From: a virus | Lineage: Duplodnaviria > Heunggongvirae > Uroviricota > Caudoviricetes | Strand: one strand, 5' to 3' | Length of the DNA: 64,000 bases | IMG/VR virus record: IMGVR_UViG_2667527582_000007 | Part shown: positions 263 to 54,006 of the stretch, piece by piece | Layout of the letters: every line of letters begins with the position of its first letter | Numbering within the stretch: the first letter of the stretch is position 1 | Notes under the pieces: generated by a model | The model's input: the letters and a program-made list of their open reading frames with translations, nothing else | Database searches by the model: none | What the model was told of the DNA's origin: nothing | Made by a program: the position numbers and the translations under genes

Positions 263-617
263 NNNNNNNNNNCCTCCAATAAGTAGCGGTAAATGCCACC
301 ACCGGAGTTCCTACGCTCATGGGTGGTGACCCGAACGGGGGTAGGAATACCGGCCTTATTGGAAACCGGCCAGCCCGAAGGCTGCCCCGCCCGGACCACC
401 ATTATCTGAAAAGGGCTAAGGTATAAGCACCGCAGCCCGAAAAATGGGTGTGCCTGAGCAACGACGTAAAAAAAGACGCACGGCGCGTCTGGTGTCGCCA
501 ATAAGTAACTCGGGTTCCTACGCCCGGCAGCCGATTTTGCGGCTGCGGGAAAACTATACCTGGAAAAGATATCAGGACGCAAGCCAGAAAAAAGGAGATG
601 AGACTGCAAAGCCAGTT

Positions 618-5410: not shown

Positions 5411-5516
<106 letters not shown>

Positions 5517-5593
5517 NNNNNNNNNNTCAGGTTGTACCAATGCTGCATGCAGTGAATGCGTAGCATGGTTTCCAGCGGATAAGNNNNNNNNNN

Positions 5594-5789
<196 letters not shown>

Positions 5790-9975: not shown

Positions 9976-10384
9976 ATCAGGCGGTACAGCCATTCAGGCC
10001 GCTGCGGCGAAATTCCATTTTGCAACCGGAGGATTTACGGGAACCGGCGGCAAATATGAGCCAGCGGGGATTGTTCACCGTGGTGAATTTGTCTTCACGA
10101 AGGAGGCAACCAGCCGGATTGGCGTGGGGAATCTCTACCGGCTGATGCGCGGCTATGCCACCGGTGGTTATGTCGGTACACCGGGCAGTCTGGCTGACAG
10201 CCGGTCGCAGGTGTCCGGGACGTTTGAGCAGAATAACCATGTGGTGATTAACAACGACGGCACGAACGGGCAGATAGGTCCGGCTGCTCTGAAGGCGGTG
10301 TATGACATGGCCCGCAAGGGTGCCCGTGATGAAATTCAGACACAGATGCGTGATGGTGGCCTGTTCTCCGGAGGTGGACGATGA
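9976..10384 (+). CDS. H: tail tape-measure protein H, C-terminal fragment
   Basis: ...GNLYRLMRGYATGGYVGTPGS...MRDGGLFSGGGR matches the gpH C-terminus. Confidence 0.85.
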
Positions 10385-10424
10385 AAACCTTCCGCTGGAA
10401 AGTGAAACCCGGTATGGATGTGGC
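10381..10424 (+). CDS. M: minor tail protein M, N-terminus
   Basis: MKTFRWKVKPGMDV; start overlaps H stop as in lambda. Confidence 0.8.
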
Positions 10425-10434
10425 NNNNNNNNNN

Positions 10435-10750
10435 TTGGCCGTAAATAATAATCCTATGCGCTTCACTGATCGCAGTGGTGGTGTGTCCCGCCGTAGAGTT
10501 ATTCTGCATTTTCCTGAGCAGATAGCACCGGAAGAACGCGATCCGCAGCTAAAAGATAAAATTGCTCGAGAACTTGCTGTGATTGTTCGCCAACTCATGC
10601 AACGTTTCTGCGATCCGATGAGCGCCAGAACATTGCTTCAGTCGCAGCAGAATTCTGATGAGGCTCTCACCATCAAGCGTGATGCCGATCCAGCATTTGA
10701 TTTTTGTGGCTATCTTGAGGCATTACCCGACACCAACGGCATGTTTATGG
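10435..10750 (+). CDS. P4 alpha-like primase-helicase, C-terminal-region fragment (tentative)
   Basis: ...RFTDRSGGVSRRRVILHFPEQIAPEERDPQLKDKIARELAVIVRQLMQRF...; assignment by context with the other alpha fragments. Confidence 0.35.
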
Positions 10751-10760
10751 NNNNNNNNNN

Positions 10761-11278
10761 ATTCGTCGTGGCCTCGTCACCGTTAATCTGCGTGCCGGTG
10801 CCACCGTTGGTGATGGAACTGTCGCCTTCGTTATTGACGATGGCCTTGTCGCCGTCAATCTGGATACCGATGGACTCCGGATCGGTGACGGTCATGGTGC
10901 CCTTGTTATCCACCGTAGCGCTGTCGCCGGTGATATCAATACCGTGACCGCCGCCGCTGACATCCAGATCGCCGTCCTGAATCACCTTCCCGTTATTGCC
11001 AGCAATTTCCGTACCGGTGGAATCCTTGCCGTCAACGGTGGTTTTGCCGTTGTTGTTTGCCGTGGCGTCATCACCATTAATCTGGGTGCCGGTGCCGCCG
11101 TTGGTGATGGAACTGTCGTCTTCGTTGTTAACAACCGCCTTGTCACCGTCGATCTGGATACCCATGGACTCCGGATCGGTGACGGTCATGGTGCCCTTGT
11201 TATCCACCGTCGCACTGTCGCCGGTGATATCAATCCCGTGACCGCCGCCGCTGACATCCAGATCGCCGTCCTGAATCA
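10761..11278 (-). CDS. repetitive beta-solenoid adhesin-like passenger repeat, fragment
   Basis: Tandem ~96-aa units IQDGDLDVSGGGHGIDITGDSATVDNKGTMTVTDPES.GIQIDGDKAVVNNE.DSSITNGGTGTQINGDDATANNNGKTTVDGKDSTGTEI.GNNGKV; family not assigned. Confidence 0.4.
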
Positions 11279-11288
11279 NNNNNNNNNN

Positions 11289-11788
11289 GGCTGATTGTTC
11301 TGACGTTTTCGCCGCACCGGCACTGGTAGCTGCCACGCTTTTTGAGGACTCTGCAGCGGCAGCACTTTTTGAGGCTTCAGTGGCCTTTGTTGATGCCGTT
11401 CCTGCGCTGGAAGACGCTGACTGAGCCGACGAAGCGGCCTGTCCGGCTGACGTGCTGGCTGCACGTGCTGAGCCTGTAGCATCAGTCGCATGGGTTGCCG
11501 CCTCACGGGCTGATGTGCCGGCATCGCTGGCTGACTTCTTCGCGGCTGCCGTGTCCTGTGCCACTGCGGACGCGTTACGCGCCACCTCTTCCACCATCAG
11601 TTCAAAGCGGCGCAGTGCCTCCGGACGGGCATCATCCTCCGTCATGGCACCGAGAAAATCATTCAGCGTACCGGGTTGAGAATCTTCATACACGGTGATG
11701 GTCCCGGCATGTGACGGCGGGAATCCTTCCACCAACAGAATAACGCTGTACTGACCGTACTCAACGTCCATGCTGTAACGCCCGGCTT
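11289..11788 (-). CDS. stf: side tail fiber Stf, N-terminal-region fragment
   Basis: RYSMDVEYGQYSVILLVEGFPPSHAGTITVYEDSQPGTLNDFLGAMTEDDARPEALRRFELMVEEVARNASAVAQ then Ala/Ser-rich region, as in lambda Stf. Confidence 0.8.
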
Positions 11789-12608: not shown

Positions 12609-12792
12609 CGATGTTGGTATTCCCCTCACTGTCCAGCACCGGCGTACTGTTCAGCAGTACGCTTTTTAATCCATCCACCGGACCTTCAATCGGCCCTTCA
12701 CTGATGGCGTCTATCACGCTCAGCATCTGGGATGATTTCAGGTTGTCCTTCGCTTCGCGCGGGGTATGCCCCTTACTGCTGCCTTTACCCAT
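12609..12792 (-). CDS. J: J protein N-terminus (truncated by gap)
   Basis: MGKGSSKGHTPREAKDNLKSSQMLSVIDAISEGPIEGPVDGLKSVLLNSTPVLDSEGNTNI. Confidence 0.8.
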
Positions 12793-30356: not shown

Positions 30357-32032
30357 CTCAATTTACGCAAAATACCGCCATGCCTTCTTCCCTCTGGCAA
30401 TACTGGCGCGGCCTTTCCGGCTGGAACTTCTATTTTCTGGTTAAGTTCGGCCTGTTGTGGGCGGGATATCTTAACTTCCATCCGCTCCTCAATTTGGTGT
30501 TTGCCGCGTTTCTGCTGATGCCCCTTCCGCGCTACAGCCTGCATCGCTTGCGCCACTGGATTGCCCTGCCGATCGGCTTTGCTTTGTTCTGGCATGACAC
30601 CTGGTTGCCTGGCCCGGAAAGCATAATGAGCCAGGGTTCGCAGGTGGCGGGGTTCAGTACCGATTATTTAATCGACCTTGTCACACGCTTTATTAACTGG
30701 CAGATGATTGGGGCCATTTTTGTTTTATTAGTGGCCTGGTTATTCCTGTCACAATGGATTCGCATTACCGTTTTTGTGGTTGCCATACTGCTATGGCTGA
30801 ACGTACTTACCCTGGCGGGACCAAGTTTCTCCTTGTGGCCAGCCGGACAACCGACGACCACTGTAACAACGACGGGTGGTAACGCAGCGGCAACCGTTGC
30901 GGCGACGGGTGGCGCACCGGTAGTGGGTGATATGCCCGCACAAACTGCACCGCCAACAACGGCGAACCTTAACGCCTGGCTGAATAATTTCTATAACGCG
31001 GAGGCGAAACGTAAATCGACCTTCCCGTCTTCGCTGCCCGCTGATGCTCAGCCATTTGAACTACTGGTGATTAACATCTGTTCGCTTTCCTGGTCGGATA
31101 TAGAAGCCGCCGGGTTGATGTCGCATCCACTGTGGTCGCATTTCGATATTGAGTTCAAGAACTTTAACTCCGCCACCTCCTACAGTGGCCCGGCGGCGAT
31201 CCGTTTACTGCGCGCCAGCTGCGGGCAGACTTCGCACACTAATCTGTATCAACCGGCAAATAACGACTGCTATCTGTTTGATAACCTTTCGAAACTGGGC
31301 TTTACCCAGCACCTGATGATGGGACATAACGGCCAGTTCGGCGGTTTTTTGAAAGAAGTTCGCGAAAATGGCGGCATGCAGAGCGAATTGATGGATCAAA
31401 CAAATCTGCCGGTTATTTTGCTGGGCTTTGATGGTTCGCCGGTTTATGACGATACCGCTGTGCTTAACCGCTGGCTGGACGTTACCGAAAAAGATAAAAA
31501 CAGCCGTAGTGCCACGTTCTACAACACGCTTCCACTGCATGACGGCAACCATTATCCGGGGGTCAGCAAAACAGCGGATTACAAAGCGCGGGCGCAGAAA
31601 TTCTTTGATGAACTGGACGCCTTCTTTACTGAACTTGAGAAATCGGGTCGTAAAGTGATGGTGGTCGTGGTGCCGGAACACGGCGGCGCGCTGAAGGGCG
31701 ACAGAATGCAGGTATCTGGCCTACGTGATATCCCTAGCCCGTCTATCACCGACGTCCCCGTTGGGGTGAAATTCTTCGGCATGAAGGCACCGCATCAGGG
31801 GGCACCGATTGTCATCGAACAACCGAGCAGCTTCCTGGCTATCTCCGATCTGGTGGTTCGCGTTCTCGATGGCAAGATTTTCACCGAAGACAATGTTGAC
31901 TGGAAAAAACTCACCAGTGGGTTGCCACAAACAGCACCGGTCTCCGAGAACTCAAATGCAGTAGTTATTCAATACCAGGATAAACCGTACGTTCGCCTGA
32001 ACGGCGGCGACTGGGTGCCTTACCCGCAGTAA
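30353..32032 (+). CDS. bcsG: cellulose biosynthesis protein BcsG (559 aa)
   Basis: [76 protein letters not shown]... Confidence 0.85.
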
Positions 32033-34013: not shown

Positions 34014-35140
34014 NNNNNNNNNNNNNNNNNNNNNNNNNNNNNNNNNNNNNNNNNNNNNNNNNNNNNNNNNNNNNNNNNNNNNNNNNNNNNNNNNNNNNNN
34101 NNNNNNNNNNNNNNNNNNNNNNNNNNNNNNNNNNNNNNNNNNNNNNNNNNNNNNNNNNNNNNNNNNNNNNNNNNNNNNNNNNNNNNNNNNNNNNNNNNNN
34201 NNNNNNNNNNNNNNNNNNNNNNNNNNNNNNNNNNNNNNNNNNNNNNNNNNNNNNNNNNNNNNNNNNNNNNNNNNNNNNNNNNCTTTTTTCTCAGCTATCG
34301 TCCTCTTATTTTGCCGTTACATTTCTTTTTGCACTCTAATGATTAATTTACAATAATAATATCGGTAATTATTGAGTAATAATAAATTGATTATTGCAAA
34401 TGTAATTTAATTCCATCTTCGCGTTATATTCCAATCTTTAATCTCCGCATGGAACAAGTTGCATGCGTGACTATATTAAGACAACTTATAACCACCAAAA
34501 CATTTGCTTTGCAAGCAAAAACAGTGACCATTGACTCTAAGAAAATTCCGATCTATTGTTAGGATCATCAAAGTTACTTAACAGTATTCCGAAATGAAAA
34601 TACAAAGCAAGCTAATTGTCTTATTAAACATTATCATTGCATTTATATTATTTGAGCTTTTAGCTCAAAAATTTGGTTTGAGTACATTATTTTAAAGCAA
34701 GATAAACAATATCGGGCACTCTAGTTTTTATAATTAACAATTAAACGTCCATAAAATGTTATTTACTTTTCTTCGCTATTGTCATATCTTAATATTGTGG
34801 CTTACGCCACTCTACTTTCATCACATTTTGTACGTTTATGTACTCGCCATGAAGCTCTTTCATGGCGATTTTTTATTCTTAATCCAAGAACATACTCCCT
34901 ACCTATAGCAAAATCACTTTTTTAACAAAAGAATAACGTATTTAGGTAATCATTACGAATTTACCCTATAGGTGCTACTGGCCATTCAATATCCGGTGCT
35001 ACTGATGTATCAACACTGTTCAGCAACACCCGATATGTCTTCCATGCCGTCAGTAACGATGTCTCTTCCTCCGTTGCGATCTCCAGCTCAGCAACAGTCT
35101 GAACGTACCAGGAACAGCCTCCTTCAGGGCTTGAAGGATA

Positions 35141-44115: not shown

Positions 44116-44200
44116 GCGGGAGTGGCGAAATTGGTAGACGCACCAGATTTAGGTTCTGGCGCCGCAAGGTGTGCGAGTTCAAGTCTCGCCTCCCGCACCA
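44116..44200 (+). tRNA. leuW: tRNA-Leu (UAG)
   Basis: GCGGGAGTGGCGAAATTGGTAGACGCACCAGATTTAGGTTCTGGCGCCGCAAGGTGTGCGAGTTCAAGTCTCGCCTCCCGCACCA. Confidence 0.95.
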
Positions 44201-44223
44201 TTCACCAGAAAGCGTTGTACGGA

Positions 44224-44298
44224 TGGGGTATCGCCAAGCGGTAAGGCACCGGTTTTTGATACCGGCATTCCCTGGTTCGAATCCAGGTACCCCAGCCA
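44224..44298 (+). tRNA. glnU: tRNA-Gln (UUG)
   Basis: TGGGGTATCGCCAAGCGGTAAGGCACCGGTTTTTGATACCGGCATTCCCTGGTTCGAATCCAGGTACCCCAGCCA. Confidence 0.95.
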
Positions 44299-44332
44299 TC
44301 TTCTTCGAGTAAGCGGTTCACCGCCCGGTTAT

Positions 44333-44396
44333 TGGGGTATCGCCAAGCGGTAAGGCACCGGTTTTTGATACCGGCATTCCCTGGTTCGAATCCAGG
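44333..44396 (+). tRNA. glnW: tRNA-Gln (UUG), second copy, truncated by gap
   Basis: Identical to the previous tRNA-Gln up to the gap. Confidence 0.85.
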
Positions 44397-51920: not shown

Positions 51921-51943
51921 NNNNNNNNNNGAAGAAACAATCT

Positions 51944-52020
51944 GGCTACGTAGCTCAGTTGGTTAGAGCACATCACTCATAATGATGGGGTCACAGGTTC
52001 GAATCCCGTCGTAGCCACCA
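51944..52020 (+). tRNA. metT: tRNA-Met (CAU, elongator)
   Basis: GGCTACGTAGCTCAGTTGGTTAGAGCACATCACTCATAATGATGGGGTCACAGGTTCGAATCCCGTCGTAGCCACCA. Confidence 0.95.
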
Positions 52021-52067
52021 AATTCTGAATGTGTCGAATATGTTCGGCAAATTCAAAACCAATTTGT

Positions 52068-52128
52068 TGGGGTATCGCCAAGCGGTAAGGCACCGGATTC
52101 TGATTCCGGCATTCCGAGGTTCGAATCC
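52068..52128 (+). tRNA. glnV: tRNA-Gln (CUG), truncated by gap
   Basis: TGGGGTATCGCCAAGCGGTAAGGCACCGGATTCTGATTCCGGCATTCCGAGGTTCGAATCCT. Confidence 0.85.
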
Positions 52129-52139
52129 TNNNNNNNNNN

Positions 52140-52357
52140 AACTTTTCCGTTATTACCGTTGATTTCCGTACCGGTGGAATCCTTGCCGTCAACGGTGGTT
52201 TTGCCGTTGTTGTTTGCCGTGGCGTCATCACCGTTAATCTGCGTGCCGGTGCCACCGTTGGTGATGGCGCTCTCGCCTTCGTTGTTAACAACCGCCTGGT
52301 CGCCGTCAACCTGGATACCGATGGACTCCGGATCGGTGACGGTCATGGTGCCCTTGT
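52140..52357 (-). CDS. repetitive beta-solenoid adhesin-like passenger repeat, fragment
   Basis: KGTMTVTDPESIGIQVDGDQAVVNNEGESAITNGGTGTQINGDDATANNNGKTTVDGKDSTGTEINGNNGKV. Confidence 0.4.
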
Positions 52358-52609
52358 NNNNNNNNNNCACATAGGCGTTTGCCTTACGCGCGGTCGTGTC
52401 AGCCAGTAGCGGCAGCAGCTCTTCTTTTTCAGTAATCAGCCCGGCCAGTTCTGTGGCTGTTTCCTGTTGTTCCAGATACTCAGCCCGAAGAGCTTTCATC
52501 TCCGGTGTTACGATGCCGCCGCTCTGGTTAAGCAATTCCCTGAACTGCGCCCGATTGTCTTTGCTGGCCTGCTCAGTTTCGGTCTGATGCTGGCGCAGAN
52601 NNNNNNNNN

Positions 52610-53926: not shown

Positions 53927-54002
53927 GGGTGATTAGCTCAGCTGGGAGAGCACCTCCCTTACAAGGAGGGGGTCGGCGGTTCGATCCCGTCATCACCCAC
54001 CA
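53927..54002 (+). tRNA. tRNA-Val (UAC)
   Basis: GGGTGATTAGCTCAGCTGGGAGAGCACCTCCCTTACAAGGAGGGGGTCGGCGGTTCGATCCCGTCATCACCCACCA. Confidence 0.95.
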
Positions 54003-54006
54003 CTTC

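Follow-up and report, generated by a model that had tools for sequence, protein, structure and literature searches.

The window analysed here, a stretch of 64,000 nucleotides in all, consists of about 97 small contigs (57-3751 nt) with 10-N spacers between them, plus one 269-N run at 34014-34282. It is a patchwork and not a continuous stretch of genome, and it is typical of the repeat-derived leftovers of an Escherichia coli short-read assembly. Open reading frames that cross the spacers are not trustworthy. Besides the features collected in Table 1, four rdlD antitoxin RNAs (ldr/rdlD copies), RtT and prophage tail genes were found in the window.

Three of the contigs, with lengths of 518, 359 and 218 nt, encode copies of one repeat. 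The first-pass annotation had placed this repeat at contig ends, but each of the three fragments turned out to be an entire contig that lies wholly within the repeat and has N spacers on both sides. All three could be read without a stop codon in the very frame that encodes the peptide quoted in that annotation. The quoted peptide has 98 residues and combines residues of several copies; 95 of the 98 residues were matched in the 518-nt contig, 95 of 98 in the 359-nt contig and 68 of 72 in the 218-nt contig. The description of near-identical repeats in minus, plus and minus orientation was correct. The same holds for the composition, since Gly, Asp, Thr and Asn make up 56.7% of the 363 residues encoded by the three contigs. 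An antisense frame was also without stops in each of these contigs and showed no sign of a gene. Most likely, these antisense frames are open because the codon composition of the repeat is biased.

The repeat has a period of exactly 98 aa (294 nt), instead of the roughly 96 aa proposed earlier. At an offset of 294 nt, the 518-nt contig matched itself at 204 of 224 bases and 69 of 74 residues, a periodicity that is far beyond chance, and the three contigs aligned in register. The unit itself arose by an ancient doubling of a 49-aa half-unit: at offset 49 it matched itself at 36 of 98 residues. TRF reported no array at the three sites when run over the window, because two full units do not fit in any single contig. 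When the contigs of the window were searched singly, only these three belonged to the gene identified below as ydbA/upaH, and neither its unique N- and C-terminal parts nor its flanking genes were found among them. An apparent extension of the repeat into the contigs 51931-52129 and 52368-52599 had come from tblastn alignments crossing N spacers, and it disappeared in the contig-by-contig search.

Table 1. Features of the window and of the intact homologue from strain PCP06021 (protein of 2412 aa).
Feature	Sequence	Position	Strand	Remarks
UpaH/YdbA repeat contig	window	10761..11278	-	518 nt, 1.76 units of 294 nt/98 aa; frame from 11276, 172 codons, no stop
UpaH/YdbA repeat contig	window	27582..27940	+	359 nt: last 5 codons of a unit, full 98-aa unit, first 16 codons of the next unit; frame +2, 119 codons, no stop
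UpaH/YdbA repeat contig	window	52140..52357	-	218 nt, unit residues 27-98; 72 codons, no stop
naRNA4/REP-BIME arrays	window	5436-5786; 56986-57064		
tRNA arrays	window	about 53927-54529; 44116-44396		
Prophage C4/isrK RNAs	window	319-559		
Tape-measure C-terminal fragment	window	contig 9976-10424		
Signal-peptide-like segment	PCP06021 protein	N-terminus		MQRKTLLSACIALALSGQGWA; by-eye reading
Acidic, proline-rich stretch	PCP06021 protein	after N-terminus		
PF25784 BigA_N	PCP06021 protein	residues 140-220		Pfam, 110.6 bits
Seven 98-aa units	PCP06021 protein	residues 252-937		89-100% identical to window unit
Degenerate units and weakly related repeats	PCP06021 protein	after the seven units		degenerate units about 40% identical
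PF25783 BigA_beta	PCP06021 protein	residues 1981-2064		Pfam, 89.5 bits
PF03797 autotransporter beta-domain	PCP06021 protein	C-terminus		70.9 bits vs cutoff 26

The repeat, which had at first been left unassigned, belongs to ydbA/upaH. Of the 5426 complete E. coli genomes searched by megablast with the 518-nt contig, 2400 gave matches, at 12680 places in all (median 4 and maximum 16 per genome), and the matched genes were annotated as 'autotransporter domain-containing protein' or 'BigA/YdbA N-terminal beta-barrel domain-containing protein'. In the closed genomes of strains 81EVA and PCP06021, the repeat gene lies between paaY/ynbG and pdxI, with housekeeping genes on its flanks and no prophage genes nearby. 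The same position in K-12 MG1655 is occupied by ydbA (b4492), an annotated pseudogene split by IS2D and IS30C. CFT073 (NC_004431.1) is without the paa operon at the locus, and its autotransporter gene stands directly upstream of pdxI; in strains without paa, ydbL forms the flank instead of paaY/ynbG. Compared with the gene at this locus in closed E. coli genomes, the 518-nt contig showed 95-97% nucleotide identity, and the two shorter contigs reached 99-100%.

Published upaH primers were designed on GenBank FJ719778.1 with a stated product of 680 nt (PMC11658850). These primers mapped in the CFT073 gene with 0 mismatches, 665 nt apart. No match was found for them in 81EVA or PCP06021 when 2 mismatches were allowed, which agrees with the reported variation of the passenger domain (PMC8281228). 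The fragments were assigned to ydbA/upaH because the K-12 locus is ydbA and the CFT073 gene contains the sites of the upaH primers; the equation of upaH with ydbA is based on primer mapping together with synteny.

Intact alleles of the gene are 2246-2412 aa long as annotated, and the domain layout of the longest, from PCP06021, is given in Table 1. The proteins of both 81EVA and PCP06021 begin with a putative Sec signal peptide, read by eye as MQRKTLLSACIALALSGQGWA / ADIT. The PF03797 barrel was missed by Pfam on the whole 2412-aa protein and surfaced only in a separate scan of the C-terminal 420 aa. The first-pass suggestion of an autotransporter or adhesin passenger was borne out by the intact homologues, which end in this beta-domain; the C-terminal barrel that defines type Va autotransporters is present in the PCP06021 protein and lies outside the window sequence. 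In 81EVA (NZ_CP138397.1, extracted-locus positions 10368-10571), the RefSeq CDS starts 68 codons downstream of the PCP06021 start. The codons upstream of the RefSeq start, including the signal peptide, are intact and identical to those of PCP06021, and the annotated 81EVA protein is without a signal peptide because its start was called 68 codons late.

All 7 and 8 megablast places in the two closed genomes lay inside one gene at steps of 294 nt. This indicates that the repeat forms one tandem array of variable copy number and no dispersed family. The array comprises 6 units in 81EVA and 7 in PCP06021, covers roughly 2 kb with 87-100% amino acid identity to the window unit, and is accompanied by degenerate units. 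K-12 has about 3 units, and the RefSeq sequence of CFT073 holds a collapsed copy with about two good units at 82-84% amino acid identity. The first-pass annotation had supposed a long internal array that the assembler could not resolve, and the 6-7 near-identical units of the closed genomes agree with this. The repeat contigs of the window itself have perfectly matching stretches in common, up to 71 nt long. With units 87-100% identical over about 2 kb and exact stretches of this length, a short-read assembler cannot thread the array and emits isolated repeat contigs, which here were gathered with the other small leftovers in the window. No exact suffix-prefix overlaps were found among the three contigs, and the assembly graph is therefore not reconstructable from them. 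The CFT073 genome was misassembled in the upaH region during closure (PMC3419190). In its RefSeq record (NC_004431.1, extracted-locus 24322-30361), upaH is divided between a 305-aa 'hypothetical protein' and a CDS for a 1664-aa autotransporter; the split CDSs and the two remaining good units are in agreement with the published misassembly.

Units of the window could be paired with particular units of the 81EVA and PCP06021 arrays, with 0-1 nt of difference in each pair. The full unit of the 359-nt contig is 1 nt off unit 2 of both strains. The 218-nt contig is 1 nt off unit 5 of PCP06021, and its protein is 100% identical to residues 670-741. In the 518-nt contig, a unit identical to unit 4 of both arrays comes first and is followed by a partial one identical to unit 3, the opposite order to that in the two closed arrays. 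This 4-to-3 junction reflects either the recent duplication of a block of two units (588 nt) in this strain, which we regard as possible but rather doubtful, or a chimeric walk of the assembler through the graph.

We conclude that the three contigs are almost certainly collapsed or partial copies of the 98-aa tandem array near the passenger N-terminus of the classical, monomeric (type Va) autotransporter UpaH (ydbA, upstream of pdxI/ydbC). Judging from the other genomes, the array of this strain would lie at the same locus, and the gene may be intact; its copy number, too, is projected from those genomes. It is very unlikely that the fragments come instead from a second, paralogous repeat autotransporter outside the ydbA/upaH locus, such as a plasmid- or island-borne UpaH/BigA-like gene. 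Eight of the 12680 places in complete genomes are plasmid-borne, the Salmonella homologue bigA sits at another locus, and the junction of unit 4 to unit 3 is absent from the two closed arrays; against this, the other 12672 places are chromosomal, and in the genomes examined all places fall within the single ydbA/upaH gene. Moreover, BigA-type repeats are merely 38-44% identical to the window repeat, whereas the difference of 0-1 nt per unit from ydbA/upaH units indicates allelic and not paralogous divergence.

A phage origin, with the repeat as part of a tail fibre or tailspike of one of the prophages whose fragments fill the window, is effectively refuted and has next to no probability. The neighbouring contig 11289-11788 does encode an N-terminal fragment of a lambda-like side tail fibre (phrog_3279, E 3.4e-72), one 353-aa ORF (10710-11771, minus strand) unites it with the repeat, and phage tailspikes occur among the non-significant fold matches. 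However, this ORF crosses a 10-N spacer that separates unrelated contigs, and it is therefore a concatenation artefact and no gene. The first-pass annotation had stated that a clear match to a known tail fibre domain would speak against its reading. The repeat fragment has no PHROG family, and a tblastn search of 50,697 phage records yielded only 4 weak matches, none above 45% identity. Two of them lie in chromosomal contigs of Salmonella, in a gene annotated as an autotransporter (the one inspected is bigA), and two in 2.8-kb pieces that carry no annotation. In the closed genomes, every copy lies in the single chromosomal gene by pdxI, between housekeeping flanks and away from prophage genes. 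The reading of the repeat as part of an autotransporter thus stands.

The gene corresponds to upaH of uropathogenic CFT073 (FJ719778; Allsopp et al. 2010, 2012) and to ydbA of K-12, by near-identity of sequence and by the locus upstream of pdxI/ydbC in other genomes. Fragment 1 of K-12 ydbA carries the same 98-aa unit at 94% nucleotide identity to the window, although the K-12 gene differs in being a pseudogene with few units. UpaH of CFT073 also carries this unit and likewise defeated assembly, but the allele is different: the window units are about 85% identical in nucleotides to the CFT073 RefSeq copy, far from the near-identity to 81EVA and PCP06021.

Salmonella enterica BigA (STM3478; NCBIfam NF033178) has BigA_N, BigA_beta and the autotransporter barrel in common with the E. 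coli protein. The NCBIfam BigA model recognised the window fragment (E 4.9e-31) as well as the intact protein of E. coli. The curated cutoff of NF033178 is 3400 bits, and it was not reached by the intact E. coli protein at 1356 bits; the locus also differs, being cysG-bigA-yhfL-trpS in Salmonella. For these two reasons, the E. coli protein is regarded as a relative of BigA and not as BigA.

The self-associating autotransporters AIDA-I, Ag43 and TibA resemble UpaH in their type Va architecture and their long, repetitive, probably beta-helical passenger. The repeat of AIDA-type passengers is about 19 aa long, unlike the UpaH unit of 98 aa (2 x 49 aa, about four rungs of 24.5 aa). Pfam listed BigA_N, BigA_beta, Autotransporter and a sub-threshold DUF6360 for the full protein and the fragment, and its AIDA, pertactin and PATR repeat models had no match in either. 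The first-pass annotation could not match the repeat to Ag43, AIDA or YfaL, and rightly so, the repeat being that of UpaH/YdbA. UpaH has been placed among the 'AIDA-I type' autotransporters (PMC12525524, PMC8281228); since no AIDA, pertactin or PATR model matches the passenger, this name denotes a broad class of the literature. These small contigs should be labelled upaH/ydbA repeat fragments in annotation, and the length and intactness of ydbA/upaH should not be judged from this short-read assembly.

The true upaH gene of CFT073 is reportedly 8.535 kb long. It is said to lie within a 6.5-kb unannotated region of the published CFT073 genome and, reportedly, to be repressed by H-NS. UpaH has been reported to act in biofilm formation and to give a competitive advantage in colonising the mouse bladder, and its passenger sequence to vary markedly among lineages (PMC12525524, PMC9289746, PMC8281228). 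Binding of ECM proteins is denied in one source (PMC12525524), which also reports that UpaH does not promote aggregation, and affirmed in another (PMC9289746). By analogy with this literature, the gene behind the window may contribute to biofilm formation and bladder colonisation. UpaH/YdbA, its repeat-driven variability and its assembly problems are already published, so the fragments add nothing new on the gene itself and have little biological consequence.

On the model of the type Va family and its reviews, a Sec signal peptide would bring the precursor of roughly 2300-2800 aa into the periplasm, where the C-terminal 12-strand beta-barrel would enter the outer membrane. The passenger would leave through or alongside the barrel and fold at the cell surface as a long beta-solenoid. 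Each 98-aa unit may contribute about four rungs, each of three strands and roughly 24.5 aa, and added units would lengthen the stalk and display a repetitive Gly/Asp/Thr/Asn surface. As the copy number is unequal among strains, the length of the passenger varies. If the 588-nt block duplication is true, the strain of the window would be a live case of recombinational expansion of the UpaH array, a VNTR-like change of passenger length.

A sequence search and a profile search of the PDB with the repeat gave no match. The AF2 single-sequence model of the 172-aa fragment was all-beta, with three short strands per 24.5 residues or so, at low confidence (pLDDT 62, pTM 0.51). In the Foldseek comparison of this model with the PDB, the best E was 0.5 and none was significant; the list consisted mostly of right-handed beta-helix proteins, including autotransporter passengers, and a beta-helix fold of the passenger is consistent with these predictions.
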